Below are positions 6,515 through 59,714 of a stretch of DNA of 64,000 nt, in pieces (the stretch's first letter is position 1; each line of letters begins with the position of its first letter). Position numbers and translations under genes: made by a program. This DNA comes from a plasmid. Location of the stretch: sequence record NZ_CP096708.1; one strand, written 5' to 3'. The notes below the pieces were generated by a model. That model was given only the letters and a program-made list of their open reading frames with translations. It was not told the DNA's origin and did not search any database.

Positions 6515-6544
6515 TCATGAGCCGATAGGCTTAAGGGATTTTAT

Positions 6545-7449: not shown

Positions 7450-7499
7450 AAAGAATAATGGTTATTTACCACATAAGCTGAAAAGCTGGAGGAGTTTTA

Positions 7500-7766: not shown

Positions 7767-7847
7767 ACTTGCTTGCAAAATAGCCTAAGTAGAACTTGGG
7801 CTATCAAATAATGAATTTAATAAGCTGAAAAGCTGGAGGTGTCTTTT

Positions 7848-7967
7848 ATGAGTCTATATTTCAAAAAAATTGTCGTATTCTCTCTTATCAGCCTATTTGT
7901 TTCGGGTTGTGAAGTACCTGAATCAAAAAAGCAAGCAGCGCGTGATGCAGTTATTAATGAACATCTA
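7848..7967 (+). pseudogene. 5' part of a lipoprotein gene interrupted by Tn2009 (continues at 16392-16856)
   Basis: Hairpin-SD at 7824-7842. Signal peptide plus lipobox VSGC. The reading frame continues across the 9-bp target duplication into 16392 onward. Confidence 0.7.
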
Positions 7968-8038
7968 CTCTGTACACGACAAAAATAGATAACTCATTGA
8001 AATAATGTCATAATAATTGTTTTCTAACGACGAATACT

Positions 8039-8608
8039 ATGACACATCTCAATGAGTTATATCTTATCTTAAACAAATCTCTAAAATGGAACAAGTCACA
8101 TTTAAAGTGCTTTGCGCTCATCATGCTTGTGATTATTTTAAAGCAAACATGTAATCTTTCTTCTGCATCTAAAGCCTTGCCCATCAAGTGCTTACCACAA
8201 TCATTTTATCGACGTATGCAGCGCTTCTTTGCAGGTCAGTATTTTGATTATCGTCAAATTTCTCAGTTGATTTTCAATATGTTTTCATTCGACCAAGTGC
8301 AACTGACTTTAGATAGAACCAATTGGAAATGGGGAAAACGAAATATTAATATCCTGATGCTCGCAATCGTTTATCGTGGAATAGCGATACCTATCCTTTG
8401 GACATTGCTTAATAAACGTGGAAATTCAGATACGAAAGAGCGCATTGCTTTGATTCAACGCTTTATAGCCATTTTTGGTAAAGACCGTATTGTGAATGTG
8501 TTCGCAGACAGAGAGTTTATCGGTGAGCAGTGGTTTACATGGTTAATTGAACAAGACATCAACTTCTGCATTCGTGTTAAAAAAACTTCATTGTCACCAA
8601 TCATTTAG
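8039..8608 (+). CDS. tnpA: ISAba1 transposase OrfA (189 aa)
   Basis: MTHLNELYLILNK...; recognised ISAba1 sequence. Confidence 0.9.
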   Translation: MTHLNELYLILNKSLKWNKSHLKCFALIMLVIILKQTCNLSSASKALPIKCLPQSFYRRMQRFFAGQYFDYRQISQLIFNMFSFDQVQLTLDRTNWKWGKRNINILMLAIVYRGIAIPILWTLLNKRGNSDTKERIALIQRFIAIFGKDRIVNVFADREFIGEQWFTWLIEQDINFCIRVKKTSLSPII

Positions 8609-8682
8609 GAAAGAATCATAAAATTAGTGATTTATTTCGCCATCTTAAAGTTGGTCAAATTGAATGTCGTAAACGACGGATT

Positions 8683-9129
8683 TTGGTTGGTCGGGTGAAA
8701 CTATATATAAGTGCACTACAGTTAGAAAATGGAGAGCTTTTACTCGTCGTTTCTCCTCAGTTTAATGCCAATGCTATTCAGGATTATGCATTACGCTGGG
8801 AAATTGAAACCTTATTCAGTTGTCTCAAAGGACGCGGGTTTAATCTTGAAAATACGCGCTTGACAGACCCTAGACGAGTGAAAAAATTGATTGCGGTGTT
8901 AGCTATAAGCTTCTGTTGGTGTTACTTAACGGGTGAATGGCAACATGATCAAAAAAAAGCGATAAAAATAAAGAAGCATGGACGACTCTCAATGAGTTTA
9001 TTTCGCTATGGTTTAGACTATGTTCAAATGGCGATTCAGCGTTTAATTGGTTTTGGGAAAAAAGAAGAGTTTAAGGAAATTTTGGCAATTTTAAGAAGGC
9101 AGAATCCTGATAGGATAAGGGTTCTGTGA
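8683..9129 (+). CDS. tnpA: ISAba1 transposase OrfB part (148 aa)
   Basis: Second frame of ISAba1. Confidence 0.85.
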   Translation: MVGRVKLYISALQLENGELLLVVSPQFNANAIQDYALRWEIETLFSCLKGRGFNLENTRLTDPRRVKKLIAVLAISFCWCYLTGEWQHDQKKAIKIKKHGRLSMSLFRYGLDYVQMAIQRLIGFGKKEEFKEILAILRRQNPDRIRVL

Positions 9130-9147
9130 AATTTGTCGTGTACAGAG

Positions 9148-10633
9148 TACATTAGTAGCAATTGATGAATTCCACCATGTTTCAGCAGATGCTGACAATA
9201 TTCTAGGTACTGTTCTTAAATCTTTAATGGACAATACCACGGCTCATATTGTTGCGATGACAGGTTCATACTTCCGTGGCGATAGCGTTCCTGTACTTAC
9301 GCCTGAAGATGAAGCGAAGTTTGATAAAGTTTCTTTTAACTATTACGAACAACTCAATGGGTATAGCTATTTAAAGTCATTAGGCATTGGTTATCACTTC
9401 TATAAAGGCCGCTACTTTGCAGAAGATGATGAAGGGGTTATCGCAATTGCTGAAGTTTTAGATACCGATAAAAAAACCATAATTCACATTCCAAATGTAA
9501 ATTCAGGTGAATCAACCAAAGATAAATATGATGAAGTGGACGCGATCCTCGAAATCATTGGTGAATTTGTCGCTAAAGATCCTCATACTGGAATTATCAC
9601 CGTCAAGCGTGCAGATGGTAAGATCTTAAAAGTAGCAGACCTCGTTGAAGAAGATGGTCGTGATAAAGTTGTTGAATATCTACGTAACATTAAAACCGTA
9701 GATGATCTTGATCTCATCATTGCCCTAGGCATGGCGAAAGAAGGCTTTGACTGGCAATTCTGTGAACATGCTTTAACGATTGGTTATCGTGGCTCTTTGA
9801 CTGAAATTGTGCAGATTGTGGGACGTTGTACACGAGATAGCTCAAACAAATCACATGCGCAGTTTACCAATCTTATTGCTCAACCTGATGCACAGGATAC
9901 TGAAGTTAAATTTGCAGTAAACAACATGCTGAAAGCAATTACTGCATCTTTGTTAATGGAACAAATACTTGCACCAAACTTCAAGTTTAAAACCAAACGT
10001 GATGATGAAGATATTGTTCCGCCAGGAACACTAACGATTAAAGGTTTTAAAGAACCAAGCACGGCAAAAACAAAGGCGATTATTGAAAATGATCTTGTGG
10101 ATCTAAAAGCAGTGATTCTTCAAGATGCTAAAGTGATTGCAGGTTCAGCAGGTAAGGTTGAGCCTGAAGTGGTGAATAAAATCCTTATTCCCAAGATTAT
10201 CCAAACAAAATATCCTGACTTAACGAAAGCAGAACTTGAAGAAGTGAGTCAGTATTTAGTCGTGGACTCAGTGATTAGCACAGCAGAAGTCAAAGAAGTT
10301 GGCGATAAAAAGTTTATTCGAATGGCAGATAAATTTATCAATATCGAAGACCTGAATATTGATTTAATTCAATCTGTGAATCCTTTCCAAAAAGCGTTTG
10401 AAATCCTATCAAAAGAAGTCACAGTCAATGTGCTCAAATTGATTAAGGAAGCAATTGAAGCAACTAAGATTAGTATGACTCAAGAAGAAGCCATTGAGCT
10501 ATGGCCTAAGTTAAAAGCCTTCAAAGTTCAGTTTGGTCGTGAGCCTAGTCTAGAGTCAAATAACTTAATTGAAAAACGATTAGCCGAATGCCTAATCTAT
10601 ATCCGTGAGCAACGTAGACGAGCTGGAGTGTAA
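9148..10633 (+). pseudogene. SF2 DEAD/DEAH-type helicase, C-terminal portion (motifs II-VI), 5'-truncated by ISAba1
   Basis: The frame is open from the IS junction. Motif II DEFHH lies 8 codons from the junction. Motif VI QIVGRCTRD is present. Confidence 0.75.
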
Positions 10634-10636
10634 AAC

Positions 10637-10924
10637 GTGGAAGATTTTAGCTGGCTTCAAGATATGATTGCTGATGATGACTTAGGTCTTTTAAACGTAA
10701 AGAAAAAGATGTCTGCTCTAACGGCTGATGAGCAATTAGTCTCTAAGTTTAATGAAATTAATAATTTTGTGACACAGCATGGGCGTGTGCCTACGAAGAA
10801 TATGGCAAATATCACTGAATATATGCTCGCTAGCCGTCTAGAAGCAGTTCAAGCCAATCCAGAGCAATACATGGCTTTAGCAGATTATGATGAACATAAT
10901 TTGCTGCCACAACATCAGGATTAA
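10637..10924 (+). CDS. Hypothetical protein (95 aa) with N-terminal DDDLGLL motif
   Basis: GTG start. Shares the N-terminal motif with the next ORF. Confidence 0.4.
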   Translation: MEDFSWLQDMIADDDLGLLNVKKKMSALTADEQLVSKFNEINNFVTQHGRVPTKNMANITEYMLASRLEAVQANPEQYMALADYDEHNLLPQHQD

Positions 10925-10928
10925 AGAT

Positions 10929-11843
10929 ATGTCAGATATTAAATCACTTGAAGATATTTTTAATGATGATGATCTAGGTTTGCTCGATGATGGTAAAGAT
11001 GGTGACATCTTTAAAATTAAGCATGTGCCTGTCCAACGTGCAGCAGCAGATGAAGTTGCTAAACGTAAACGCTGTAAGGACTTTGATCAATTTGAGCATC
11101 TATTTAAAGATGTTCACAGAGAGCTTCGAGAAGGTAAGCGTAAGCTATTACCATTTCATGATAAAAGTTATCAGCTCGAAAAAGGCAGTTACTATGTTTT
11201 AAATGGTCTTTTGGTTTATTTGGCAGATTTTACATTTACTAGAGAAGATAAGACCGTTAATAAAGTCAGAACCAGAAAAGATGGTAGAACTAGAACTATT
11301 TTTGAAAATGGTACTGAATCCACAATGCTCTATCGATCACTAGCTAAAGCATTATATAACGATGGGCGAATTGTCTCTGAAACTAATGAGCAAGCAAATT
11401 CCAATTTCTATACTAATTTTGGTGGGATTACAGAAAATGATACATCTACTGGTTACATCTACATCTTGAAATCTCATAGTAAAGAACCAAAAATTCAGTC
11501 ACTTGAACATCTCTATAAAATTGGATTTTCAACCACAACTGTTGAAAAACGTATTGCTAATGCAAAAAAAGAACCGACTTATTTGATGGCTGACGTTGAA
11601 GTAATTGCTGAATATCAAGCATTCAATATTAATCCACAGAAGTTTGAATATTACTTACATGCTTTCTTTGGTGAGGCTTGCCTTGATTTATTGGTCGCAG
11701 ACAAAGGTGGTAAAAATCATCAACCTAAAGAATGGTTTATTGCGCCTTTAAATGTGATTCAACAAGCCGTTGAATTATTAGTAAATAGCCAAATTATGAA
11801 TTACAAATACAATAAGCTCACAAAAGAGATAGAATTAAAATAG
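10929..11843 (+). CDS. GIY-YIG/T5orf172-like domain protein (about 304 aa)
   Basis: Motifs GYIYIL...YKIGFS...E. N-terminal DDDLGLL repeat. Confidence 0.5.
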   Translation: MSDIKSLEDIFNDDDLGLLDDGKDGDIFKIKHVPVQRAAADEVAKRKRCKDFDQFEHLFKDVHRELREGKRKLLPFHDKSYQLEKGSYYVLNGLLVYLADFTFTREDKTVNKVRTRKDGRTRTIFENGTESTMLYRSLAKALYNDGRIVSETNEQANSNFYTNFGGITENDTSTGYIYILKSHSKEPKIQSLEHLYKIGFSTTTVEKRIANAKKEPTYLMADVEVIAEYQAFNINPQKFEYYLHAFFGEACLDLLVADKGGKNHQPKEWFIAPLNVIQQAVELLVNSQIMNYKYNKLTKEIELK

Positions 11844-11858
11844 TTTCATAATAAACCT

Positions 11859-11891
11859 ATGATAGAACTATGATAGAACTATGATAGAGCT
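11859..11891 (+). repeat. Three tandem 11-bp iterons ATGATAGA(A/G)CT upstream of parA-like gene (parC/operator candidate)
   Basis: Three consecutive direct repeats, 125 bp upstream of 12017. Confidence 0.6.
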
Positions 11892-12016
11892 ATAATGGGT
11901 TTATAAAACAACTAAAAAACATTTTTTTTAATTTTATTAATGTTCTATAATGCAACTTAAATAACCTATTGGTATATTCCTTCTATCCCTAGAAATATCT
12001 GAAAGAGTGAGAATAA

Positions 12017-12634
12017 ATGGCTGAAATAATTACTATTGCTAGTAGAAAGGGTGGGGTTGGAAAAACCACTATTGCAATAAATATGGTTGTTGCTTTAAGC
12101 AATAAAGGTAAAACTTTATTGGTAGATGCTGATGAACAACAATCTGCTATGAAATGGAATAAGCATCGGAAAGAAAAGATAGATGCTATATCCATACATA
12201 AGGATCTAATTGCTGAGTTGGAAAAACTAGATGGGGAGTATCAGTACATTCTCATAGATGTTGCTGGCCGTGATTCTGAAATATTTAGAGAAGCACTTCT
12301 TATCAGTGACAAGCTAATCGTACCCACTCAAGCAAGTCTTCTTGATTTAGATGTAATCCCTTATCTAAATGAAAAGGTTAAAACAGCTAAAAAAACCAAT
12401 CCAAACTTGGTTTCAATGGTTGTGATTAATAGAGCATCAACCAATGCCAAATCCAATGAAACAGAGCAGGCAAGAGAATTTGTTGCTGATTATGAGGAAT
12501 TCAAGTTATTGCAAACCACATTGCATGAACGAAAACAGTATAGAGATGCAGTTCTTGAATCAAAGAGTGTTCTTGAGATGGCGGCATCTAAAGCTAAAGA
12601 CGAATTAAATCAATTTCTAATTGAGGTGCTGTGA
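12017..12634 (+). CDS. parA: ParA-like ATPase (205 aa) of Tn2009 cargo
   Basis: Deviant Walker A KGGVGKTT. Confidence 0.8.
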   Translation: MAEIITIASRKGGVGKTTIAINMVVALSNKGKTLLVDADEQQSAMKWNKHRKEKIDAISIHKDLIAELEKLDGEYQYILIDVAGRDSEIFREALLISDKLIVPTQASLLDLDVIPYLNEKVKTAKKTNPNLVSMVVINRASTNAKSNETEQAREFVADYEEFKLLQTTLHERKQYRDAVLESKSVLEMAASKAKDELNQFLIEVL

Positions 12635-13029
12635 TGACTGGAAATAATACAAGCAACAAGTTTAAAGCTGCTAGAGAGAACAAGGATTTTGTGCAAGACG
12701 TTAATTCAGATGCAGCAGATCCAATGCCTAAACAAATTACTGTTACTAGCAGAAATAAAAGTCAAATAACCCTTGAGCAAAATACCCTAAGTCAACGAGA
12801 GAGATCCAGAGTTAAAAATGGTAGGAACTTAACGATTCCACTATTTGCAGAAGAACTTTTGATTATAGAAACTGCTGTTGAAAGCCTTTCTCAAAAAGAA
12901 GATGTTTCTATCAATAGCTTCATTAGAAGTATCGTTCTTGATAAGTGTAAGAAGGTGATAGGAAAAGATGCCTTCGATAAATTAAATGAAAACAAGCTAA
13001 ATGTTGTTAAAGCAAAAAAAGAAAAGTAG
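12631..13029 (+). CDS. ParG-like ribbon-helix-helix partner protein (132 aa)
   Basis: Translationally coupled to the ParA-like gene. RHH-like C-terminal region. Confidence 0.45.
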   Translation: MMTGNNTSNKFKAARENKDFVQDVNSDAADPMPKQITVTSRNKSQITLEQNTLSQRERSRVKNGRNLTIPLFAEELLIIETAVESLSQKEDVSINSFIRSIVLDKCKKVIGKDAFDKLNENKLNVVKAKKEK

Positions 13030-13178
13030 GAAAAGGAAACATTAGCCAGGATAAGATAGTGTTTGATTATCACACTATCTTTCCTACTCTACGCAAAATA
13101 CTTTTTTTTAATAAACATTGGAAAACATATTAACTTATTGAAAATAAATGTATTAATATAGAAAAAAATTGACATATT

Positions 13179-13691
13179 ATGCATCATCACACGAACATGG
13201 GGATGCGAGCTATGCAAGCTCGCGCCTTCGAATCTCGTAATAGTCAGTATTTGCTCTTAAAAGCCCCTCCTGCATCAGGTAAATCTCGTGCATTAATGTT
13301 TTTGGGTTTAGACAAGATACACAACCAAGGGTTAAGCAAAGTTATTGTAGCTGTACCTGAACGCTCAATTGGCGGTTCATTTGCTAGCACAAAACTAAGC
13401 GAAAGTGGCTTTTTTGCAGATTGGGATATCAAACCTGAAAACAACTTATGTACTGCTGGTGGCGATAAAAGCAAAGTAAAAGCCTTTAAACACTTTATGG
13501 AAGGTACAGATCAAATTTTAGTATGTACACATGCCACACTAAGATTTGCTTTTGAAGAGCTTGAAGATCATGTATTTAATAATACATTAGTCAAAATACA
13601 CGACAATTTTTGCAGAATCTGCCAGCCAATGATGTTCTCCTTACTGGTTCACGCGGCACAGGAAAATCTTCAATTGTCCGTGCCCTTTTAA
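13179..13691 (+). pseudogene. SF2 helicase N-terminal fragment (motifs I, Ia, Ib), 3'-truncated and fused out of frame to the truncated ATPase
   Basis: PPASGKS (motif I), VAVPER (Ia), ILVCTHATL (Ib). The frame then decays. Confidence 0.6.
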
Positions 13692-14251
13692 CCGAGTATA
13701 AAGATCAAGGATTACGTTTAATTGAAATTGAACGTGATGATCTGTCCGATCTTCCTGAAATCCAGAAGCTCATCCAGAAGCGTCCGGAAAAGTTCATTGT
13801 CTACTGCGATGATCTGGCCTTTAATGCTGAAGATGAAAACTATCGCAGCTTAAAAAGTGTACTTGATGGCTCATTACAGTCAGGTTCAAGTAATTTTATT
13901 ATTTATGCAACCAGCAACCGTCGACATCTGTTACCAGAATTTATGCATGAGAACACGCCAGTGACTCGTGTAGATGTACCGCAATATACCGAGTTGCATC
14001 CACAAGAAGCCATTGAGGAAAAAATTTCACTCTCGGATCGTTTTGGAATGTGGCTTTCATTCTATCCAATGGATCAAAACCTGTATTTAACCATTGTAGA
14101 ACACTATCTTGCTAAAACAGATATGCCAATGAATGACGAAGCCCATGCTGAAGCCCTACGCTGGTGTCAGGCACGTGGTCAACGGTCAGGACGTGCCGCC
14201 TATCAGTTCTCTAAACACTGGATTGGATCACAACAACTAAAAGCACTGTAA
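13610..14251 (+). CDS. AAA-family ATPase (5'-truncated; the truncated ATPase of blaOXA-23 transposons)
   Basis: Walker A GSRGTGKSS. Convergent with blaOXA-23. Confidence 0.75.
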   Translation: MQNLPANDVLLTGSRGTGKSSIVRALLTEYKDQGLRLIEIERDDLSDLPEIQKLIQKRPEKFIVYCDDLAFNAEDENYRSLKSVLDGSLQSGSSNFIIYATSNRRHLLPEFMHENTPVTRVDVPQYTELHPQEAIEEKISLSDRFGMWLSFYPMDQNLYLTIVEHYLAKTDMPMNDEAHAEALRWCQARGQRSGRAAYQFSKHWIGSQQLKAL

Positions 14252-14300
14252 AATTTTAAACTAGAAAAATTAACAGGTTTCATTATTAGTCAGATTATAA

Positions 14301-14329
14301 AAGGCCCATTTATCTCAAATGGGCTTTTT
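14301..14329. terminator. Bidirectional rho-independent terminator between ATPase and blaOXA-23
   Basis: GGCCCATTT-ATCTCAA-ATGGGCC stem followed by TTTTT. Confidence 0.6.
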
Positions 14330-14355
14330 ATAAAATTAGAGTTTCTGTCAAGCTC

Positions 14356-15237
<882 letters not shown>

Positions 15238-15244
15238 TCATTGA

Positions 15245-15271
15245 AATAATGTCATAATAATTGTTTTCTAA
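15245..15271 (-). promoter_or_regulatory. ISAba1 outward promoter (-35 TTAGAA, -10 TTATTT) driving blaOXA-23
   Basis: Hexamers lie inside the ISAba1 end. The IS ends 34 bp upstream of the blaOXA-23 ATG, the classical junction. Confidence 0.8.
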
Positions 15272-15282
15272 CGACGAATACT

Positions 15283-15852
15283 ATGACACATCTCAATGAG
15301 TTATATCTTATCTTAAACAAATATCTAAAATGGAACAAGTCACATTTAAAGTGCTTTGCGCTCATCATGCTTGTGATTATTTTAAAGCAAACATGTAATC
15401 TTTCTTCTGCATCTAAAGCCTTGCCCATCAAGTGCTTACCACAATCATTTTATCGACGTATGCAGCGCTTCTTTGCAGGTCAGTATTTTGATTATCGTCA
15501 AATTTCTCAGTTGATTTTCAATATGTTTTCATTCGACCAAGTGCAACTGACTTTAGATAGAACCAATTGGAAATGGGGAAAACGAAATATTAATATCCTG
15601 ATGCTCGCAATCGTTTATCGTGGAATAGCGATACCTATCCTTTGGACATTGCTTAATAAACGTGGAAATTCAGATACGAAAGAGCGTATTGCTTTGATTC
15701 AACGCTTTATAGCCATTTTTGGTAAAGACCGTATTGTGAATGTGTTCGCAGACAGAGAGTTTATCGGTGAGCAGTGGTTTACATGGTTAATTGAACAAGA
15801 CATCAACTTCTGCATTCGTGTTAAAAAAACTTCATTGTCACCAATCATTTAG
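15283..15852 (+). CDS. tnpA: ISAba1 transposase OrfA
   Basis: As copy 1. Confidence 0.9.
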   Translation: MTHLNELYLILNKYLKWNKSHLKCFALIMLVIILKQTCNLSSASKALPIKCLPQSFYRRMQRFFAGQYFDYRQISQLIFNMFSFDQVQLTLDRTNWKWGKRNINILMLAIVYRGIAIPILWTLLNKRGNSDTKERIALIQRFIAIFGKDRIVNVFADREFIGEQWFTWLIEQDINFCIRVKKTSLSPII

Positions 15853-15926
15853 GAAAGAATCATAAAATTAGTGATTTATTTCGCCATCTTAAAGTTGGTC
15901 AAATTGAATGTCGTAAACGACGGATT

Positions 15927-16373
15927 TTGGTTGGTCGGGTGAAACTATATATAAGTGCACTACAGTTAGAAAATGGAGAGCTTTTACTCGTCGTTTCTCC
16001 TCAGTTTAATGCCAATGCTATTCAGGATTATGCATTACGCTGGGAAATTGAAACCTTATTCAGTTGTCTCAAAGGACGCGGGTTTAATCTTGAAAATACG
16101 CGCTTGACAGACCCTAGACGAGTGAAAAAATTGATTGCGGTGTTAGCTATAAGCTTCTGTTGGTGTTACTTAACGGGTGAATGGCAACATGATCAAAAAA
16201 AAGCGATAAAAATAAAGAAGCATGGACGACTCTCAATGAGTTTATTTCGCTATGGTTTAGACTATGTTCAAATGGCGATTCAGCGTTTAATTGGTTTTGG
16301 GAAAAAAGAAGAGTTTAAGGAAATTTTGGCAATTTTAAGAAGGCAGAATCCTGATAGGATAAGGGTTCTGTGA
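15927..16373 (+). CDS. tnpA: ISAba1 transposase OrfB part
   Basis: As copy 1. Confidence 0.85.
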   Translation: MVGRVKLYISALQLENGELLLVVSPQFNANAIQDYALRWEIETLFSCLKGRGFNLENTRLTDPRRVKKLIAVLAISFCWCYLTGEWQHDQKKAIKIKKHGRLSMSLFRYGLDYVQMAIQRLIGFGKKEEFKEILAILRRQNPDRIRVL

Positions 16374-16391
16374 AATTTGTCGTGTACAGAG

Positions 16392-16856: not shown

Positions 16857-17286
16857 TGAAATTCATAATCTCCTAGCTAAGTCGGATAGTGAAATTTCGA
16901 ATCTAGCTAAAAAACCTGTATTGCATACTGAATTTAAAAGATTTCAAAAACAGCTAGAAATGATACTGTTATATTTCCATGTTCTACCTGAATCAATTCA
17001 ATGGAATTTTGAAAAAGGTATTATGTTTCCTGAATTTAATGGCGAAATCATGATTCATAGTTCTGGATATGGCTATGGTGATGCTGGCTATTTCTTTGCT
17101 CTTGTAGATAAATTTCAGTTAGCAATGTTTATCAATCTATATTTTTGGCAGACCAGCAGAGATCATTATAACGAGCTGTATTTGGATGAATTACATAATT
17201 TATGTTGTTCTGTCGTTGATTATCTCCAAGATTTTATCAAGCAAAATAATATTGATTTAACAAGTTGTATCATAACTGATCATTAG
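16849..17286 (+). CDS. Hypothetical protein (145 aa)
   Basis: Overlaps the previous stop (ATGAATAATGAA). Confidence 0.5.
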   Translation: MNNEIHNLLAKSDSEISNLAKKPVLHTEFKRFQKQLEMILLYFHVLPESIQWNFEKGIMFPEFNGEIMIHSSGYGYGDAGYFFALVDKFQLAMFINLYFWQTSRDHYNELYLDELHNLCCSVVDYLQDFIKQNNIDLTSCIITDH

Positions 17287-17472
17287 GGCGTTCCCTTCGG
17301 GACAGGCTTGTTGGCTTCGCTCGAACTCAAACCTAAAACGTTGGTCACAGTGTTTAAAATCTAGTTTCATGCATAGCATGAACCTGATTTTAATACACCG
17401 CAGAACCAACGTTTTTTTACGCTTTGATTTCGCCCCTTCGGGCAACATCCCTAACGCCAATATCGAATACCT
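17286..17472 (+). repeat. Structured repeat family A, copy 1 (187 bp): hairpins with CUUC loops at both ends, internal long-range IR AACGTTGG/CCAACGTT, T-run
   Basis: More than 95% identical to 20363-20548. Confidence 0.85.
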
Positions 17473-17592
17473 ATTGCTAAATCTGTTCTGACTAGGATCA
17501 CTGCTGTACTCTCTATTCGTGCTTAAAACGCAAATGAGGCCCTTCTGGACGCATTCTATGTGGGATCCCGTATTCTATCCATTCCATGCAGA

Positions 17593-17783
17593 GCAGCTGC
17601 CATAGATAGATGCATCTATGTAATCAGGAACTAGGGCTTTGTAAGAGTGGCCATCATAGATAAAAACGTCTATGGCCGTGGCAAACTTAGCTTCAGTATA
17701 GATAAATATGTCTATGCTCGATTTACCTGGAAACATAGTCAAGTCTATCTATGCGCTTATGCTTTCTAGTGCGGATCCGCAAC
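17593..17783 (+). repeat. Repeat family C, copy 1 (191 bp): four ATAGA-N5/6-TCTAT inverted-repeat sites, ending in a near-copy of the 16-bp palindrome
   Basis: About 98% identical to 59524-59714. Partial copy at 30823-30904. Confidence 0.85.
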
Positions 17784-17786
17784 CTG

Positions 17787-17967
17787 GAGTCGCAACTCTG
17801 CGAGATTGCTCTGTAAAGGCCGTGTAGTGCCAAATAAAGGCAGTTGCGTTGCTGCGGTCAGCTCGACTTAATCACAGATTAAGTCGGCTTCGCTTGCAAC
17901 CTGCAACGGTAATCAAGGAGGGAAGATACTTGAATTTCACCAGTTCGCAACGTAGACACGTTGCTCT
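17787..17967 (+). repeat. Repeat family B, copy 1 (181 bp): perfect 9-bp stem CGACTTAAT-CACAG-ATTAAGTCG, SD-like AAGGAGGG near 3' end
   Basis: About 98% identical to 20598-20778. Inverted partial copy at 59311-59439. Confidence 0.85.
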
Positions 17968-18051
17968 GTTTATTATGGTGAAATAGCCTTAAAGCAAAAT
18001 ACATGACCCTAGCATAAGCTAGGGGTTTTGTTATTTTCCAATCTTAGTATC

Positions 18052-18306
18052 CTATACTTTTCCAAGTACATTGGATGCTATCTTTTCTAGTAAGGCGCTA
18101 TGTTGATCAGAAATATCTTCGATATACATTTTATATTCATTAAGATCAATGACATTAGCAAGACCCAAACCAGTCACTAACCCTTTTGCATAATGCATTG
18201 TTTCATTCAGTTGACGCTGTTGATTAAATTTTGAGTCTAATGATAAAGCATCTTCCATGTTTTTTATGGAACTCTCAATTTGATTAATTATGAAATCTTT
18301 ATACAT
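18052..18306 (-). CDS. Hypothetical protein (84 aa)
   Basis: ORF with RBS. Opposite orientation to its neighbours. Confidence 0.35.
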   Translation of the reverse strand: MYKDFIINQIESSIKNMEDALSLDSKFNQQRQLNETMHYAKGLVTGLGLANVIDLNEYKMYIEDISDQHSALLEKIASNVLGKV

Positions 18307-18414
18307 GTTGCTGGATCCTGCACTTTAATTAATATGCTATCAAAACCATATAATTATTTTACCACTAATTTAAATAAAATAACAATTAATTTACTTATAA
18401 TTTTAAAAATAGGT

Positions 18415-18449
18415 TATAATATTTTCATGGAATCGGATAGGCTGATTCC
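18415..18449 (+). promoter_or_regulatory. Promoter (TATAAT) plus conserved box GGAATCGGATAGGCTGATTCC
   Basis: Second copy of the parA-type promoter/box. Confidence 0.5.
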
Positions 18450-18479
18450 TATTAGAGCCGTGAGGCTTAAGGTGAAGAA

Positions 18480-18923
18480 ATGAAAAATGATTTAGTTTTA
18501 AGTTATACCCTTTCTAATGGTGAAACTCATTTTTATGGCTATTTTATACATCGCAATGATGGTTCGCTTACATCTGGTTTCAATCAAACACCAGAGGAAG
18601 TTATTGAAGGGCTTAAACAACGTTATGGCGAGCGATTAGTCTCAACATCACTAGATGATGAAATTGAATATTTCAAAAAGGAGTTAGAGTTTTTAATTCC
18701 AAAGCAAATTGACGAAGAAGAATATAAAAGTAAATTCAATATATTACCTCCTGCAAAAATGTATAAGAGTGAGTCGGTAGAAGCATTCATGTGTACAGAG
18801 CCGTTAGCTATCAATCTGTATACCCATTTCGTTAATTTTCCTAAGCATAAAAAGGCTTTCCAGATCGTAGCGTTTGGAAATACGCCAATAACAGACGTTA
18901 TCAAACAAGCAGAACATTTTTGA
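18480..18923 (+). CDS. Hypothetical protein (147 aa)
   Basis: Hairpin-SD GAGCCGTGAGGCTTAAGGTG (18455-18474; GNRA-type loop GTGA). Confidence 0.6.
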   Translation: MKNDLVLSYTLSNGETHFYGYFIHRNDGSLTSGFNQTPEEVIEGLKQRYGERLVSTSLDDEIEYFKKELEFLIPKQIDEEEYKSKFNILPPAKMYKSESVEAFMCTEPLAINLYTHFVNFPKHKKAFQIVAFGNTPITDVIKQAEHF

Positions 18924-18985
18924 TTTTCATGGGGTAGAAATACCCCAATTTTAATTAATGAGCTGAAAAGCTTAAGGTGAAATTT

Positions 18986-20038
18986 ATGAAAAATATTACT
19001 GATTCAATTATTCAAAAACTAGGTCTAATTACGTTTGAAGAGTTAGAAAAAGGCGATTTAGAAATATTTACTAACTTTGATACGTGTAAGGTAATTATCA
19101 AGGAAATTAAAAAAAATTGGAGTGAAGAAAAAGTATTTAAAATTTTGTTCGATGCTCTTAACGGCGACTTTATCTATTGTAACTCACAACAAGAATTACA
19201 AGCATTTATTAAGTACTTCAAGACTACTAATAAACAATCGAATAAAGCTGAGCAACATTTCTTTGTACAGCCAACTAAACCCTACATGGTTGATCCCAAA
19301 AAACGCTATTTCATTGCCAATCTAGCAGTTCCCAATCTTCAAATTGAAAACTTAAAGGATGTTGATAATTTAACGAGTCGAGAAGTGGAATTTATAAATA
19401 AAGTTAAAGATGGTTTTGCAAATCCTGACATTGACAAGTCTTTCCTAAACTTTTTAGAGGACTATAAAAAAATAGTTGCAGCAGAGTACCAGAGGAAAAC
19501 AAACCAAAATAAAAAAGCAATGGATGAAATTGAATGGTTCATTGGCAATGGCTTTTTTATTCCTGAGCAAATTCTCAAGTACGAAGATAAAAACAAAATC
19601 CTCGATATCATTGTGTACTGCAATATTGCAGCTTTGAATTGGTTGTTGATCCCAAGTAACTTGTCTAAATATGAAAATATTCATCAAAACGACTTGTTAG
19701 CTTTAACCAAATATTTGTACCTGATGCAAACAATATTGGCAGAAACTGAAATCACAAAATTAAGAAGTGGCGATGTAGAGGAATATTGTTTTAGGAAAAA
19801 AGGATATTATTTTTTAGATGAATTAAGTAGTGAAGAGATTGATCATTATTGTGAGGGAGAAGATTATGAAGTCTGGATTGTAAAATCTAAAGATAATGAA
19901 ATCGAACCTGAAACCGCAGAAAAAGCCTATGATGCATATGGAAATAGTTACGCATACGACTTAAAAGAACTAAAGGATACTTTGCAAAAATTTATATCCT
20001 TAAATGAAGTGCAGTTTTTACTTTACAAAAAGATTTAA
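18986..20038 (+). CDS. Hypothetical protein (about 350 aa)
   Basis: Hairpin-SD GAGCTGAAAAGCTTAAGGTG (18960-18979). The ATG at 18986 is preferred over the track start at 18977. Confidence 0.6.
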   Translation: MKNITDSIIQKLGLITFEELEKGDLEIFTNFDTCKVIIKEIKKNWSEEKVFKILFDALNGDFIYCNSQQELQAFIKYFKTTNKQSNKAEQHFFVQPTKPYMVDPKKRYFIANLAVPNLQIENLKDVDNLTSREVEFINKVKDGFANPDIDKSFLNFLEDYKKIVAAEYQRKTNQNKKAMDEIEWFIGNGFFIPEQILKYEDKNKILDIIVYCNIAALNWLLIPSNLSKYENIHQNDLLALTKYLYLMQTILAETEITKLRSGDVEEYCFRKKGYYFLDELSSEEIDHYCEGEDYEVWIVKSKDNEIEPETAEKAYDAYGNSYAYDLKELKDTLQKFISLNEVQFLLYKKI

Positions 20039-20099
20039 GACGCATAAAGGTCACATCATTTGATTGGTGTGACCACAATTATTTCAGGGTAGAGCACGA

Positions 20100-20297
20100 A
20101 TGAAAAATGAATATTCTGATTCAGAACTAGAAAAACTGTGGTGTGAATTAAGCAAAATAGCTATTGCGGTAAATGAAAATTTTATTGAACAAGACTTCAT
20201 ATTTTTTGAAGCAGGTACAGACATAATTGAAATTTGGATTTGGTTCGATCAGTTACATTCAAAAGGGGTTAAATGGCTGCAAGATAATATTGATTAG
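20100..20297 (+). CDS. Small acidic protein (65 aa)
   Basis: ORF with RBS-like GGGTAGAGCACGA. Confidence 0.35.
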   Translation: MKNEYSDSELEKLWCELSKIAIAVNENFIEQDFIFFEAGTDIIEIWIWFDQLHSKGVKWLQDNID

Positions 20298-20306
20298 CAA
20301 GATCTA

Positions 20307-20322
20307 GTTGCGGATCCGCAAC
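20307..20322. repeat. 16-bp palindrome GTTGCGGATCCGCAAC (copy 4)
   Basis: Exact. Followed by TATTTTTT, then repeat A copy 2. Confidence 0.9.
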
Positions 20323-20362
20323 TATTTTTTAAATTAATATTTTTTTCTTTATCTTTCTTTAT

Positions 20363-20548
20363 GGGCGTTCCCTTCGGGACAGGCTTGTTGGCTTCGCTCG
20401 AACTCAAACCTAAAACGTTGGTCACAGTGTTTAAAATCTAGTTTCATGCATGGCATGAACCTGATTTTAATACACCGCAAAACCAACGTTTTTTACGCTT
20501 TGATTTCGCCCCTTCGGGCAACATCCCTAACGCTATAATCAAATACCT
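20363..20548 (+). repeat. Repeat family A, copy 2
   Basis: See 17286-17472. Confidence 0.85.
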
Positions 20549-20597
20549 GGTACGAATTTTATGCCTATTTGAAGCATAATTTTATATCAATAATATT

Positions 20598-20778
20598 GAG
20601 TCGCAACTCTGCGAGATTGCTCTGTAAAGGGCGTGTAGTGCCAAATAAAGGCAGTTGCGTTGCTGCGGTCAGCTCGACTTAATCACAGATTAAGTCGGCT
20701 TCGCTTGCAACCTGCAACGGTAATCAAGGAGGGAAGATACTTGAATTTCATCAGTTCGCAACGTAGACACGTTGCTCT
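20598..20778 (+). repeat. Repeat family B, copy 2
   Basis: See 17787-17967. Confidence 0.85.
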
Positions 20779-20889
20779 AGATTTTATGTCAAAAATTCAC
20801 AAATATAAGTCTCTGTTTTTACTGGTTTTATTTATTTATAAAATGCCTATAATATTGTTTTTTATGCTTTTTTTATTTATCTGATGTGA

Positions 20890-20926
20890 TATAATTAGAA
20901 TTAAGAAATTGGATAGGCTAATTTCT
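20890..20926 (+). promoter_or_regulatory. Promoter (TATAAT) plus box variant AATTGGATAGGCTAATTTC
   Basis: Third copy of the promoter/box. Confidence 0.45.
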
Positions 20927-20956
20927 TAATAGAGCTGAAAAGCTTAAGGTGAAAAT

Positions 20957-21268
20957 ATGAATACTTATACAAAAATTGCAATCAATTACTTCAAAAATTT
21001 GCTATCCGTTAGCGAACAAAATAACGGATTGAAATATTCAGAATCAATGCAAAACCCGAAGCACATAGCCTGTAATGAAACTACTTTTTTCATAACTCAA
21101 ATTGAAAATTCAATTGTAATTATCGACTGTGATCATGAAAGTTTTTTGCCGTATTCGATTGATGCCTGTTTAGATTTTACGTCTAACAGCGTTAAAGAAG
21201 CAGCAGAGAAAGCGATTGATTATTATTGTCAAATTCGTGATCACTATTTTGAATTAATTAATCAATAA
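20957..21268 (+). CDS. Hypothetical protein (103 aa)
   Basis: Hairpin-SD GAGCTGAAAAGCTTAAGGTG (20932-20951). Confidence 0.55.
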   Translation: MNTYTKIAINYFKNLLSVSEQNNGLKYSESMQNPKHIACNETTFFITQIENSIVIIDCDHESFLPYSIDACLDFTSNSVKEAAEKAIDYYCQIRDHYFELINQ

Positions 21269-21875: not shown

Positions 21876-21910
21876 TATAATTTAATCAGGAAATCGGATA
21901 GGCTGATTTC
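21876..21910 (+). promoter_or_regulatory. Promoter (TATAAT) plus box GGAAATCGGATAGGCTGATTTC
   Basis: Fourth copy. Confidence 0.5.
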
Positions 21911-22699: not shown

Positions 22700-23190
22700 T
22701 TCTATTTTTTGTATAGAGCTAAAATTCTTGCACCGTAGCAACATACAATTTTTAAAATTTCGAATATTAATAAATGGGCGGGACAACCCGCAAAAAAAAG
22801 CGTCACACACCACGCACCTATCGGTGCTTCGGCTCAAGCCTATGCTGTACAAGGGTTATAGGCTAAAAAAGAGTAAAAGATCTGTGTATACGTAAAACGT
22901 ATAATTAAATAGCTATGTATATGAAACGTAGGAGATTATAGCGTATACAAACTATGGTTTAGATGTTTACCAAAATAACTAAAAACTATAAGTAACTGAT
23001 TGATAATAATAATTTAATCATGTAAACAGATAATGCAACTCTAAATATTATTTTTATGATCTTAAGTATTTGTAAAATAAAGAGAATATAGCGTTTACGC
23101 ATATCTTCTTATGAAGCTCACATTTTTTTCTCAGTTTAATCTTTGCTAATATTAAAAAATCAATCAAAGTGATACAAAAAATATTATTTA
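22700..23190. promoter_or_regulatory. Candidate oriT: AT-rich non-coding region with IRs GCGGGACAACCCGC, GCACCTATCGGTGC, TATACGTAAAACGTATA and repeated TATAGCGT(A/T)TAC
   Basis: Lies immediately upstream of the accessory protein, coupling protein and MobF relaxase genes, all transcribed away from it. Confidence 0.45.
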
Positions 23191-25861: not shown

Positions 25862-28800
25862 ATGATAGGTGTCAATAATGTTTCTGAGACAGGACAAGCG
25901 TTAAAATATTATCAACTTGATAACTATTATACGAATAGTCAGCAGGCTTTAGATCAGACTGAATGGTATGGTCAAGGAGCGCAGATACTTGGTATTGAAG
26001 GAGAGCAAGTTGATTCTAAAACGTTTGCAGATCTTCTAAATGGAAAGATTGATGATCAGCAGTTAGGCAGAGTTAGAGTCGATGATCAAGGTAATAAATA
26101 CATAGAGCACAGAGCAGCTATGGATATTACTTTTAGTGCACCGAAGTCAGTATCTATTCTTGCTGAAGTTTATCAAAATCAGGATGTTTTAGAAGCACAT
26201 CAAAATGCAGTCAAAGAAACATTATCGACTATTGAGGAGAATTTTGTTCAGACAAGATTAAGTGAAGATGGACAAAAACAAAAAGTTGATAGTGATAATT
26301 TAATAGTTGCTCTCTTTAATCATAATACTAGTCGTGCATTGGATCCTCAAACTCATACCCATGCTGTAGTTATGAATGCAACATTTAATGATAAAGATAC
26401 TTGGTCAAGTATAAGTAATGAAGCAATTTATGCAAATCAGTCAGTAATTGGTTCAATTTACAATGCTAACTTGGCTAATAATTTAAAGGAATTAGGTCTA
26501 GATCTTGAAGTAAAAGATAACAAAGGTAATTTTGAAATTGCGGGATTTTCTCCTGAAGTATTAGAAGAATTTTCGCAACGTAGAAAACAAATTATTGATA
26601 GCCTCAGTGATCGTGGTATTGATATTGGAGACGCACCAGCCAGCTTACGTGAACAGGCAGCACTAAAAACGAGAGATCGAAAGAAAGGGTTTGATGAGCA
26701 AGAGCTTAGAGAAAGCTGGAAATCTAGAGCTAGTGAACTTGGGATTTCTGATAAATTTATTGACGACATTAGATTACAAATTAGAGAAAATAAGTTAATT
26801 GCGGATCCGCAACTAGGAAAAGAAACTCAACCTGAAGAAGTTCAGGATCCACAGAAAATACCACAGACGAGAGATAATCAACTGGATCAACCTGAAGTAG
26901 CTCAAGATCCACAGAAAGTACCACAGACGAGAGATAATCAACTGGATCAACCTGAAGTAGCTCAAGATCCACAGAAAGTACCACAGATGAGAGATAATCA
27001 ACTGGATCAGCCTGAAGTAGCTCAAGATCCACAGAAAGTACTACAGACGAGAGATAATCAACTGGATCAGCCTAAATCAACCCAAGAACCAGAAAATCAA
27101 AAACCTAATAGAGTACGTCCACCTAAAAGAGATAAACCACCAATTGTGATTTCCGAAAAAACCAAGGAAGCAGTTTTTTATTCTATTGGGCATCACACAG
27201 AACGTGAAATGATGATTAATGAAAATAAGATCATAGATACAGCAATGAAAGTTGCTGTAGGTGAAACAGACTTTTTGCAAGTTAAAGCTGAACTGGATAG
27301 GTTGAAGAAAGCCAATATTATTATTCAGGTAGGAAATAGGATAACAACAAAAAAACTAGCTACTGATGAAGTATGGTCACTTGAACACATAAAATCAGAG
27401 AAAGGGAGTATGAGTCCAATACTCAATGAGAAAGCTATTAAGGACAGAATTAACCAGGAAGAAAAACTTAGAGGGAAGCAGTACACAGCAGGACAAAGAG
27501 ATAGTATTGAGACGATTTTAACTTCTGACAGTAGATATGTTGCAGTAGATGGATTAGCAGGTACGGGTAAAACTACTCTCTTACATACTATTAATAAAAT
27601 TGCGAGTGAAAACGGATTTATAGTAAGAGGAATGGCAGCTACTGGTGTTGCAGCAAAGAACTTGGAAATGGAGACAGGAATAGAGTCTAAAACAATTGCC
27701 ATGTTCCAATTTAAAGCTAATGATCTACTTAAACAGGCAATGGAGCAAGGCGTTGAAAATCGCAAACCTGAAATCTGGATTATAGATGAATCAAGTTTTG
27801 TTGGTCAGAATAGCTTTAAGGAAATTTTGAGCTTATCAAAACAACTAAATACAAGAGTTGTATTTTTAGGCGATAAAAACCAGTTACAAGCAATTAATGC
27901 AGGTAAACCTTTTGAATTAGCTCAAAATACAAATTCTATAGACTTGGCAAAAATGCATAATATTTTGCGTCAAAAGAATCAGGAATTAAAAGATGTTGTA
28001 ACGTTGGTAGTAGCTAAAAATGATAAAGGAGAAATTGATCTTAGTAAAAATGCTGAAGCATTTGACTTATTGGATTCGCAAAAAAGAATACATGAATTTG
28101 GAAGTGTTCAATCTGGTAAAAATAAAGGGGTAAAAAGTCAGCTAAATGATAATGAAGATATACATCTTGTTCACAAAGAATTAATTAAAAGCTATATGTC
28201 AAATGATGCTAAAGGACGACAAGAAAGTTTAATTATTACTCCATTTAACTCGGATCGTGTTGTTTTGAATGCATTGGTAAGAGAGGAAATGAGGAAGGCA
28301 AATGAACTTCATGGGCCTGATAGTGAATTTTCCATTCTTATCAATACAAATTACACAGAACCTCAAAGAAGTTTACAAGCAAACTATGAGCGAGGAATGG
28401 TAGTTAGATTTCAAAAAAACTATGCAGATAAAGATGGTCAAAATAAAATCTTTAAAGGCCAATATTTAAAAGTTTTGATGAAAAATAAAGACGGTACTCT
28501 AACATTGGAAGATAAAGACAAGAATCAGTTTCAATGGAATCCAAAGAAAAAGAGTAATAGTGTAGAAGTGTATAAAGAAGAAAATCGCAAGGTAGCAATT
28601 GGAGATACAGTCAGATTTACCAGAACTAAAGAAGAAGAAGATATAAAAAATGGTGAACGTTATAAGATTAAAGGCTTAACCGAAGATCATGTGAAAATTG
28701 AAGATCAAGCGGGAAACGAAAAGCTAATAGATAAAGGTGATTTTAAACACTGGGATTATGGTTACAGTAATACAGTATATTCATCACAAGGGTTAACAAA

Positions 28801-30781: not shown

Positions 30782-30822
30782 GGTACTTTATTCGTGAGAA
30801 GTAACTAGGTATTCAGGCTATC

Positions 30823-30904
30823 TAAGAGTGGCCATCATAGATAAAAACGTCTATGGCCGTGGCAAACTTAGCTTCAGTATAGATAAATATGTCTATGCTC
30901 GATT
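30823..30904 (+). repeat. Partial (82-bp) copy of repeat family C
   Basis: Identical to the internal part of 17593-17783. Confidence 0.8.
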
Positions 30905-59089: not shown

Positions 59090-59310
59090 TTAAAAAATTA
59101 AAAGCTAAGTGAGCAAGAAAATATAATAATACGAATGGTATATAAATTGTGAAATTTAAATCATATTTATATTGGCAAAATATACCATTACAAGCAGCTC
59201 CTGAAGACATTGGCCAAAAAAACGGTCGATAAATTAAGTTGATGATTTATATAGATTCAGTTGTTTTGATTAGATAAATTGAATTGGCAAAATATTACGC
59301 AAAACGAATA

Positions 59311-59439
59311 AGAGCAACGTGTCTACGTTGCGAACTGATGAAATTCGAGCATACCCATCTTTGATTACCGTTGCAGGTTGCAAGTGAAGCCGGCTTAATC
59401 TGTGATTAAGTCGAGCTGACCGCAGCAACGCAACTGCTT
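59311..59439 (-). repeat. Repeat family B, copy 3 (partial, inverted; SD-like segment replaced)
   Basis: Reverse complement of 17839-17967 with a diverged 16-nt patch. Confidence 0.8.
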
Positions 59440-59523
59440 TACTTGATCCTCGATGTAATCAACTAAGTATTCATGCAGATTTACGACATGTACTGTGCTT
59501 GCCATAATCTACATTTATCCAAT

Positions 59524-59714
59524 GCAGCTGCCATAGATAGATGCATCTATGTAATCAGGAACTAGGGCTTTGTAAGAGTGGCCATCATAGATAAAAACGT
59601 CTATGGCCGTTGCAAACTTAGCTTCAGTATAGATAAATATGTCTATGCTCGATTTACCTGGAAACATAGTCAAGTCTATCTATGCGCTTATGCTTTCTAG
59701 TGCGGATCCGCAAC
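59524..59714 (+). repeat. Repeat family C, copy 2, ending in perfect 16-bp palindrome copy 13 (59699-59714)
   Basis: See 17593-17783. Confidence 0.85.

Follow-up and report, generated by a model that had tools for sequence, protein, structure and literature searches.

The closest described systems to the repeats reported here are the single-stranded DNA (ssDNA) promoters Frpo, ssi1-3 and ssp of the plasmids F, ColIb-P9 and pESBL (Masai & Arai 1997; PMC9849209; PMC12672017). Operator arrays of the Reg576 type, located upstream of establishment genes, offer another point of comparison (PMC6294495). What is known about priming of the incoming strand and its first expression comes nearly all from F and IncI plasmids in Escherichia coli. 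Single-strand initiation (ssi) signals for primase or the primosome include the G4-type G-site 3' of R1 oriR, ssiA and ssiB of RSF1010, and n'-pas of ColE1. The CUP (conserved upstream) repeats were reportedly described by Delver and Belogurov in 1997 in the IncN plasmid pKM101's leading region. Here we analyze a stretch of 64,000 nucleotides of the plasmid record NZ_CP096708.1 (the whole of which is called the window below), from an Acinetobacter baumannii MOBF/MPF_F conjugative plasmid with blaOXA-23. Our subject is three families of repeats, A, B, and C, and the possibility that A and B act as signals on the transferred strand.

A and B are conserved families of conjugative Acinetobacter plasmids

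All three families were found where the original prediction had placed them (Table 1). The A element is about 187 nt long, and its two copies in the window, which differ by a 1-nt indel in a T-run, have segment identities of 93-98%. The B element is about 185 nt long and has two full copies that are 97% identical. A third, inverted copy of B lies between an abi gene on the minus strand and family C with umuC; over positions 45-181 of B its identity is 91%, whereas the first ~45 nt have degenerated and the P1/P2 region is not conserved.

Sensitive blastn searches of the 72,556 plasmids of PLSDB returned A in 239 records, 232 of them typed conjugative, and B in 362, of which 355 are typed conjugative (~98% for A and B carriers). 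The A records are essentially RepAci6-type MOBF/MPF_F plasmids, with matches of ~82% identity at two places per record. The B records comprise the pNDM-BJ01 family (MOBQ/MPF_T; 80% identity, two places), RepM/MOBQ plasmids (75-77%), and RepAci6 plasmids (73%). Thus, A and B are conserved families, not duplications private to this plasmid. The hosts of B include MOBF/MPF_F plasmids, MOBQ/MPF_T plasmids (the pNDM-BJ01 type without a typed replicon and the RepM type), and contigs encoding Rep_3 initiators. A is confined to MOBF lineages and, among the plasmids examined, to the lineage of the window and RepAci6, both of which have a primase-type initiator. Scanning a genome collection with the invariant core of B found further Acinetobacter contigs from about ten species, and a metagenome scan added a single new lineage carrying A plus B (contig L051). 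In species-representative genomes the true matches were plasmid-size Acinetobacter contigs, a stretch identical to pNDM-BJ01 in an A. ihumii assembly, and a few short contigs of metagenome-assembled genomes. Each plasmid carries one to four copies, at syntenic sites in the conjugative backbone. Copies on the same plasmid are 97-100% alike and those of different lineages differ by 17-27%, which indicates concerted evolution.

Rfam 15 gave no match at the gathering score anywhere in the window, and at E<5 the interval 17200-21000 gave only two spurious eukaryotic matches, both outside A and B. In the blastn search of PLSDB, which should include F-like and IncI plasmids, A and B had only chance matches of at most 37 nt beyond Acinetobacter-type backbones, and there was no similarity to Frpo1/2 or ssi1-3. 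Nor did we find a prior description of either element in the searchable literature on Acinetobacter ssDNA promoters, the RepAci6 leading region, pNDM-BJ01 repeats, or AB5075 plasmid small RNAs (sRNAs). Judged by sequence, A and B are new families, unrelated to the known ssDNA promoters or ssi sites.

Covariation argues for selection on the secondary structure of A and B

The motifs that the original prediction quoted for A (GTTCC-CTTC-GGGAC, GCCC-CTTC-GGGC, the pair AACGTTGG/CCAACGTT, and the T-run) can be read directly from the window, as can the B stem CGACTTAAT-CACAG-ATTAAGTCG and the B motif AAGGAGGG. A folds far more stably than shuffled sequences, with z-scores of -5.4 (plus strand) and -6.6 (minus strand); the scores of B are moderate, at -2.7 and -3.2. 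The apical half of the long A hairpin, TTTAAAATCTAGTTTCATGC...GAACCTGATTTTAA, is invariant over three lineages. The outer stems of the same hairpin consist of three unrelated pairing sequences: ACGTTGG/CCAACGT in the window, AGAGGAT/ATCCTCT in the RepAci6 plasmid pA85-3, and AGCTGATC/GATCAGC in L051.

For B, RNAalifold of 13 variants yields four helices in which 13 of 39 pairs have changed on both sides. Pairing is kept in 98.4% of cells (87.9% in shuffles), the 13 double-sided changes compare with 7.2 in shuffles and at most 3 in controls with the partners slid, and the covariation score of 0.262 exceeds those of shuffles (0.071) and of slid partners (at most 0.076). Compensatory changes include CTC/GAG to CCC/GGG, CGACTTAAT/ATTAAGTCG to AGTCAAAAT/ATTTTGACT, and GCAACGT/ACGTTGC to GCAAAGT/ACTTTGC; the last of these affects P4, which in copy 1 reads GCAACGT-AGAC-ACGTTGC. 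The P3 loop AATCACAGATT, the single-stranded stretch ACGGTAATCA, and the segment CAGTTCGCAA are invariant in all 13 variants. These comparisons indicate that the secondary structure of A and B is under selection. Patterns of this kind imply that both elements act as single strands and are non-coding.

A coding signal in B was considered and rejected. The purine-rich tract 3' of ACGGTAATCA reads AAGGAGGG in copy 1, which had been noted as resembling a Shine-Dalgarno (SD) sequence; the motif is there, but it varies among lineages to GGGAAAGG, ACGAGGGG, and AGAGAGGG, and no conserved start codon follows. The small open reading frames (ORFs) that overlap A and B are likewise not conserved. The apex of A, considered as a mimic of the Acinetobacter I-F CRISPR repeat, bears too weak a likeness to it, and the invariant apex showed no similarity to the rep/oriV region. 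The invariant loop of B reads CTG on the antisense strand, and A lacks a consistent CTG; a DnaA box or conserved primase CTG in these loops is a lead only.

A and B lie in the leading region, co-oriented with neighboring genes

A single motif in the window, on the minus strand (Table 1), resembles the hairpin-plus-nic regions of R388 and F. It is kept in pA85-3 at the equivalent place (~11054, minus strand), with the loop GTTA, and its core GGTGCGT..GGTGTG occurs once in the window, so that no second oriT or nic site was found there. Its place on the minus strand marks this strand as the transferred one and the lower coordinates as the leading region. The two clusters of A and B lie on that side, 2.0-2.4 kb and 4.8-5.5 kb from the motif and 5' of plus-strand operons, and the leading-region location originally proposed for them is borne out. 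The minus strand is the template of the plus-strand gene array, in agreement with the report that the transferred strand is the template of leading genes (PMC11541004). The GC content of A and B is 0.40-0.47 in surroundings of ~0.35, a contrast also seen with the ssDNA promoters of F (PMC13478746).

We scanned the first 24 kb for folding in segments of 300 nt with DNA parameters, as in the homology-free mining of hairpins in F and pESBL (PMC12672017). On the minus strand, only the two A/B clusters fell more than two standard deviations below the mean, with minima of -52 to -60 kcal/mol (mean -25.1, standard deviation 7.5). Both B copies of pNDM-BJ01 are likewise among the few top outliers of that plasmid. 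The strongest ssDNA/RNA fold within 38-47 kb of pNDM-BJ01 is a separate one, at 38001-38390 (-65 kcal/mol per 300 nt), in a long gap 5' of the parA operon; in this plasmid without a typed replicon, the origin of replication may lie there.

All 21 full-length B copies examined are co-oriented with the nearest plausible 5' gene, exceptions being confined to degenerate or truncated copies. On the 3' side, homologous genes recur in unrelated backbones, encoding a 147/154-aa protein, a 103-aa protein together with a DnaJ-domain protein, or a 188/197-aa protein, and ArdC follows B in RepM/MOBQ plasmids. A σ70-type promoter lies 100-170 nt 3' of B, with a conserved leader as well in MOBF plasmids. 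In MOBQ/MPF_T plasmids an inverted pair of B copies flanks an anti-defense island (ArdC-like protein, antirestriction protein, DUF3560): one copy is directly 3' of traD near oriT and the other at the far end of the island. The two copies of such a plasmid are near-identical, and lineages differ by ~15-25%. In contigs with a Rep_3 initiator, B lies ~400 nt 3' of rep and a second copy faces outward on the opposite side.

Pairing asymmetry favors folding of the antisense strand

With DNA parameters, the minus-strand fold of A is the more stable of the two, by 5-9 kcal/mol, in five of five copies (three lineages). The hairpin has energies of -31.0 to -34.3 kcal/mol on the minus strand vs -22.5 to -27.8 on the plus strand, and the full element -43.7 to -47.5 vs -34.8 to -39.2. 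One to three G.T pairs are present in the minus-strand folds of the window and RepAci6 copies of A (four of five) and none in that of L051; the plus-strand folds contain none. In the well-supported helices of B, 25 distinct copies show five independent uncompensated transitions, every one of which, read on the sense strand, yields A.C or C.A and thus G.T on the antisense strand; no change yields sense-strand G.U. Unpaired columns have no such bias (15 vs 14). The antisense strand of A and B, which is the template and transferred strand, is the more likely one to fold.

Candidate functions of A and B

Position in the leading region, fold outliers on the transferred strand, covariation, and synteny upstream of establishment genes together make an ssDNA signal the best fit to the data. 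We infer that A and B are cis-acting single-strand initiation (priming) signals upstream of ordinary promoters of establishment and anti-defense operons, a tentative reading whose chances we put slightly below even. The transferred strand (minus in the window) would enter the recipient, and the reverse complements of A and B would fold on it, A into a multi-branch structure that includes an imperfect hairpin of ~110 nt and B into four hairpins whose loops are invariant. The folded elements would serve as ssi signals, at which synthesis of the complementary strand is primed. Since B always stands in gene direction, primed synthesis would run with transcription; the ordinary σ70 promoter and leader 100-170 nt farther on would become duplex first, and the establishment or anti-defense operon would follow. 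If the arrow of B is the direction of primed synthesis, the inward pair at the anti-defense island and the outward pair at rep would both fit, as would the degenerate inverted copy left of rep in the window, and the traD-proximal copy on the retained strand could serve replacement synthesis in the donor. B is the general module of the two; C, a separate element, has been inserted between A and B or lies beside them.

Several points weigh against priming on the transferred strand. The strand call depends on few events: five of five in B (one-sided p ~0.03), and three lineages in A. RNAalifold on the sense strand gives invariant G.U pairs in one weak helix of B and in the 5' hairpin of A, although for the weak B helix there is an alternative pairing, all Watson-Crick, under which a recurrent G-to-A change is another antisense-strand wobble. 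As RNA, the sense strand of B has the more stable fold in 9 of the 13 variants. One of the B copies of MOBQ plasmids is on the non-transferred strand, which calls for the extra assumption of donor replacement-strand or vegetative priming; the assignment of the transferred strand in these plasmids is itself by analogy only. Moreover, ssi signals lack a sequence definition usable in silico, and the proposal gives no account of what A does beside B in the tandem unit. In a more specific form of it, A and B would each represent a new class of ssDNA priming signal particular to Acinetobacter, a priming site beside an ordinary promoter would replace the ssDNA promoter, inverted B pairs would bracket the anti-defense island, and A could be a target of the primase-type initiator with which it was found; we consider this possible but rather unlikely. 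Among the large uncharacterized proteins, no plasmid primase other than Rep was found.

The original prediction had offered Frpo-type promoters, and indeed an ssDNA promoter, whose hairpin on the transferred strand would recruit RNA polymerase before the complementary strand exists and whose RNA might also prime, shares the evidence of position, strand, repetition, and hairpins with priming. In F and pESBL several non-homologous hairpin classes precede each leading operon (PMC12672017, PMC11541004). Partial promoter pairs exist: TTTAAA-17-TAGGTT/TAGCTT on the transferred-strand arm in two of three A lineages, and, antisense to B, TTGCAA-17-CAAAAT in 10 of 13 variants and TTCAAA-16-CAAAAT in two pA85-3 copies. 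However, the B pair is absent from the window copies and the A pair from RepAci6, and a search of both strands of five A and 13 B variants for conserved σ70 boxes found no -35/-10 pair in all lineages. A generic promoter scan stayed below shuffle expectation. The operons have good double-strand promoters of their own just downstream, and B copy 1, here and in pA85-3, has strong terminators and convergent genes within 20-30 nt on its 3' side. Terminators beside A and B are no obstacle to DNA synthesis and are awkward for promoter or RNA models. Lacking both a conserved -35/-10 and sequence similarity to Frpo or ssi among the F-like plasmids of PLSDB, A and B fall outside the Frpo class on two of its defining features, while sharing its position and hairpins, and we regard a promoter function for either element as distinctly unlikely.

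Alternatively, A and B may function at the RNA level, either as structured 3' untranslated or inter-operon elements transcribed together with the upstream genes (insulating terminators, stabilizers, or sRNAs that are independent or derived from the 3' untranslated region, possibly anti-defense RNAs) or as antisense RNAs. B is often only 0-33 nt past the stop codon of its co-oriented 5' gene, one such gene being traD, which in plasmids of the pNDM-BJ01 type is on the opposite strand, and six copies close a gene array and face a convergent gene. The region has an excess of terminator-like hairpins (12 vs 2.1 expected), the A hairpin is flanked by A-runs and T-runs, with T6-7 directly 3' of it in all lineages, and the greater stability of sense-strand B RNA, given above, points the same way. 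Yet the size and the invariant loops of the elements exceed what termination needs, and a canonical terminator already stands directly before A in two lineages, the window and L051. The last hairpin of B has a T-rich tail only in the copies of this window, the U-run being missing in most lineages. A 50-bp RNA hairpin would be a substrate of RNase III, which also counts against an RNA role. Neither the Rfam search nor the promoter search gave support, the wobble asymmetry favors the antisense strand, where most copies have no plausible promoter, and in the literature searched no AB5075 sRNA is tied to its RepAci6 plasmid. The sRNA alternative raised for A and B is therefore disfavored, and we judge an RNA function unlikely.

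The varied module combinations and the concerted evolution would also be expected of remnants of insertion sequences (IS) or miniature inverted-repeat transposable elements (MITEs), or of passive homology patches kept by gene conversion that promote module shuffling. The module combinations first described (A+C+B, A+B, and B-inverted+C) were confirmed, and a fourth combination, C+B, was added by a unit outside the window at 67788-68169 of plasmid p5767. Against such an origin, no terminal inverted repeats, target duplications, or associated transposase were seen, and the few copies per plasmid are syntenic and found in conjugative backbones only, without a dispersed chromosomal family in the species-representative scan; the fragments of a known IS or MITE envisaged as an alternative at the outset did not turn up. 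Compensatory change and invariant loops speak for selection on structure, and we think a mobile-element origin very improbable. No pdif-like core for Xer recombination was seen at the module junctions.

Family C is probably an array of operator sites

Family C, originally grouped with A and B as elements of one kind, differs from them. Its full copies are 98% identical, and a core of ~89 nt at 30816-30904 is 97.8% identical. PLSDB holds C in 13 records (seven typed conjugative, six mobilizable), of which six are near-identical and seven are partial matches of 71-79%; MOBF plasmids of A. soli and A. seifertii have homologues that are ~71% identical. These keep four to five 20-bp sites, CATAGATAAAnnn(G/A)(T/A)CTATG, separated by variable spacers. 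The sites had been given as ATAGA-N5/6-TCTAT; the actual spacing is ATAGA-N8-TCTAT, within the 20-bp CATAGATAAAnnnGTCTATG. Matches to ATAGA-N4-8-TCTAT number 10 in the window, with 0.76 expected, and this excess together with the fold z-scores of A and B excludes a chance origin. A change from GTCTATG to GACTATG in one half-site has no matching change in the partner half-site. Because half-sites are conserved without compensatory change, they suggest binding of a protein to double-stranded DNA (dsDNA) rather than a hairpin, and C is probably an array of dsDNA operator sites for a putative dimeric regulator, separate from A and B. Its four contexts are the gap between A and B, the 5' side of umuC, the 3' side of the relaxase operon, and a place ahead of a further B.

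The palindrome that closes C is present as described but is not specific to C, being one of 14 dispersed GCGGATCCGC palindromes in the window (0.00 expected), which usually read TTGCGGATCCGCAA and contain GATC. They could be intercistronic RNA hairpins or terminators, or an operator or parS of a KorB/ParB-like protein (a ParB gene is at 866-2125). Often the palindrome lies 10-20 nt 5' of a second dispersed module, a hairpin plus SD sequence, GAGCYG-NRA-RGCTT-AAGGTG, found a few nt 5' of start codons 18 times (0.04 expected) and always in the sense of the next ORF. Its stems covary (AGCU/AGCU, AGCC/GGCU), and its loops are often GNRA-type tetraloops (GAAA, GUGA); it looks like a plasmid-wide signal for translation initiation or RNA processing. 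In pA85-3, two tiny hydrophobic ORFs (42 and 22 aa; 7804-7990) lie between a GCGGATCCGC palindrome and A copy 2. Each has one membrane helix as predicted by eye; they are absent from the window plasmid and may encode a type I toxin-like or entry-exclusion peptide.

A further hairpin, with the invariant loop GGATAGGCT, lies just 3' of σ70-like -10 boxes before parA and three leading-region operons (43-51, 18435-18443, 20911-20919, and 21896-21904; ~8518-8530 in pA85-3). Its stems covary (GGAATC/GATTCC, GAAATT/AATTTC, and, in pA85-3, GAAATC/GGTTTC). In the leader at 20870-20956 it is followed by the hairpin-SD GAGCTGAAAAGCTT-AAGGTG, and an equivalent unit is at 18400-18479. This hairpin may be a shared regulatory leader with a role analogous to that of the IncN CUP units.

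Features of the window plasmid

The interval 17200-21000 is 100% identical to A. baumannii p5767 (NZ_CP096703.1, 70,287 bp) and NZ_CP018422.1; with the plasmids of BJAB07104 and BJAB0868 the identity is 99.9%. Every one of these plasmids is typed conjugative, p5767 as MOBF, MPF_F. Window positions 1-9147 are the same as 1-9147 of p5767, and 15212-64000 the same as 7968-56756; between them the window has an extra ISAba1-bounded segment bearing blaOXA-23. Direct copies of ISAba1 at 7968-9147 and 15212-16391 flank this segment of ~6 kb (region 7968-16391), whose cargo is blaOXA-23, on the minus strand at 14356-15186, and a ParA-like gene, and p5767 has a single ISAba1 at the same site; we take the segment to be a Tn2009-like composite. 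The replication initiator (62208-63371) has Pfam Replicase (PF03090) and PriCT_1 (primase C-terminal) domains and is, by these domains, a primase-type Rep; a DnaA-box-like TGTGGATAA is at 61932-61940. Within the MobF relaxase gene, tandem 60-bp repeats at 26767-27126 (~6 units, 63-96% identity) would give a repeated 20-aa segment in the protein.

Table 1. Coordinates of repeats and neighboring features. Positions are those of the window unless another plasmid or contig is named; for A and B the strand listed is the one more likely to fold; a dot means no strand.
Feature	Position	Strand	Remarks
A copy 1	17286..17472	-	likely folded (transferred) strand; unit co-oriented with plus-strand genes
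Long imperfect hairpin of A copy 1	17323..17431	-	~110 nt; A-run and T-run on flanks
C copy 1	17586..17783	.	between A and B; four 20-bp imperfect palindromes (CATAGATAAAnnnGTCTATG type); ends in GCGGATCCGC palindrome
B copy 1	17787..17977	-	hairpin P1, variable P2, long P3, P4
Bidirectional terminator-like hairpin	18007..18024	.	30 nt 3' of B copy 1
Intrinsic terminator	20305..20324	+	TAGTTGCGGATCCGCAACTA plus T-run, directly 5' of A copy 2
A copy 2	20363..20548	-	begins ~38 nt 3' of intrinsic terminator
B copy 2	20598..20788	-	~100-170 nt 5' of σ70-like -10 boxes and leader of ORF 20957
Ordinary promoter (TGTGATATAAT) and two-hairpin leader	20870..20956	+	operon 3' of A/B copy 2
oriT nic-like motif	22800..22827	-	minus strand GCACC-GATA-GGTGC, then GTGGTGTGTGACGC
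C partial copy	30816..30904	.	two palindromic sites; convergent gap 3' of relaxase operon
B inverted degenerate copy	~59309..59488	+	B sense on minus strand (profile search)
C copy 3	59517..59714	.	~90 nt 5' of Y-family polymerase (umuC-like) start at 59802
Hairpin-SD module	64, 2182, 3693, 4030, 4367, 5372, 5959, 6519, 7822, 18455, 18960, 20932, 21278, 21919, 46639, 53039	+
Hairpin-SD module	33600, 35702	-
GCGGATCCGC palindromes	2161, 6502, 17771, 20310, 26801, 33627, 35729, 37362, 38573, 43325, 47190, 52387, 59702, 63860
B copies of MOBQ/MPF_T plasmids	L054 6500-6683; L057 6501-6685 and 10651-10835; pNDM-BJ01 42759-42945 and 46527-46712
Gene map, part 1			parA/parB, then long series of small plus-strand ORFs
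Gene map, part 2			short minus-strand ORF, AT-rich gap, accessory gene, type IV coupling protein gene at 23717, MobF relaxase gene
Gene map, part 3			F-type tra genes
Gene map, part 4			Abi (-), Y-family polymerase (umuC-like) gene at 59802, rep at 62208

Significance and comparison with known systems

A and B are conserved in several hundred conjugative plasmids, including the RepAci6 (OXA-23, as in the window) and pNDM-BJ01 (NDM-1) families, which are main vehicles of carbapenem resistance in Acinetobacter. They are clonable candidates, with clear predictions of orientation, for the step at which an incoming strand is primed and first expressed in a genus other than that of F and IncI hosts. 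Should priming beside a promoter be their function, these plasmids would have an alternative route to early anti-defense expression and an establishment strategy different from that of F-type plasmids, the first duplexed stretch being the promoter of the anti-defense operon. In inverted B pairs, one copy would then serve the recipient, on the transferred strand, and the other donor replacement or vegetative replication. Such a step would also be a possible target against plasmid establishment.

Like Frpo, ssi1-3, and ssp, A and B are repeats between 100 and a few hundred nt in length whose GC content exceeds that of the flanking DNA; on the transferred strand each is predicted to form a long imperfect hairpin, and several co-oriented copies stand upstream of leading operons, a few kb from oriT. 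Unlike them, A and B lack a conserved -35/-10 rebuilt in the stem, and bear no sequence similarity to them; the operons beside A and B are served by ordinary promoters separate from the elements, B is found on the non-transferred strand and near rep as well, and the host genus is Acinetobacter.

As read here, A and B would resemble the ssi signals of plasmid origins, which are strand-specific, structured, non-coding ssDNA elements whose orientation sets the direction of primed synthesis, and which occur in opposed pairs at origins or a few hundred bp past rep or ori, much as B follows rep by ~400 nt in the Rep_3 contigs. In contrast to these signals, with which they have no sequence relation, A and B are larger and more elaborate, ~185 nt long rather than the ~40-70 nt of the RSF1010 or n' sites, and priming at A and B, by host DnaG/PriA or by a plasmid protein, is putative only.

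Family C shares with the Reg576 arrays its multiple short motifs in an intergenic position within the establishment or backbone part of the plasmid, and a small repressor could bind it cooperatively. It differs in having a 20-bp imperfect palindrome instead of a dual heptamer, in a binder that is putative, and in not standing consistently beside promoters.

The CUP repeats are modules of ~150-400 bp upstream of several leading-region anti-restriction genes and may aid module shuffling, features that A and B recall. CUP units, however, are double-strand promoters with a repressor operator, whereas A and B have no conserved promoter and are defined by single-strand structure. The closer analogue of CUP in the window is the repeated unit of promoter and GGATAGGCT leader and, perhaps, family C.

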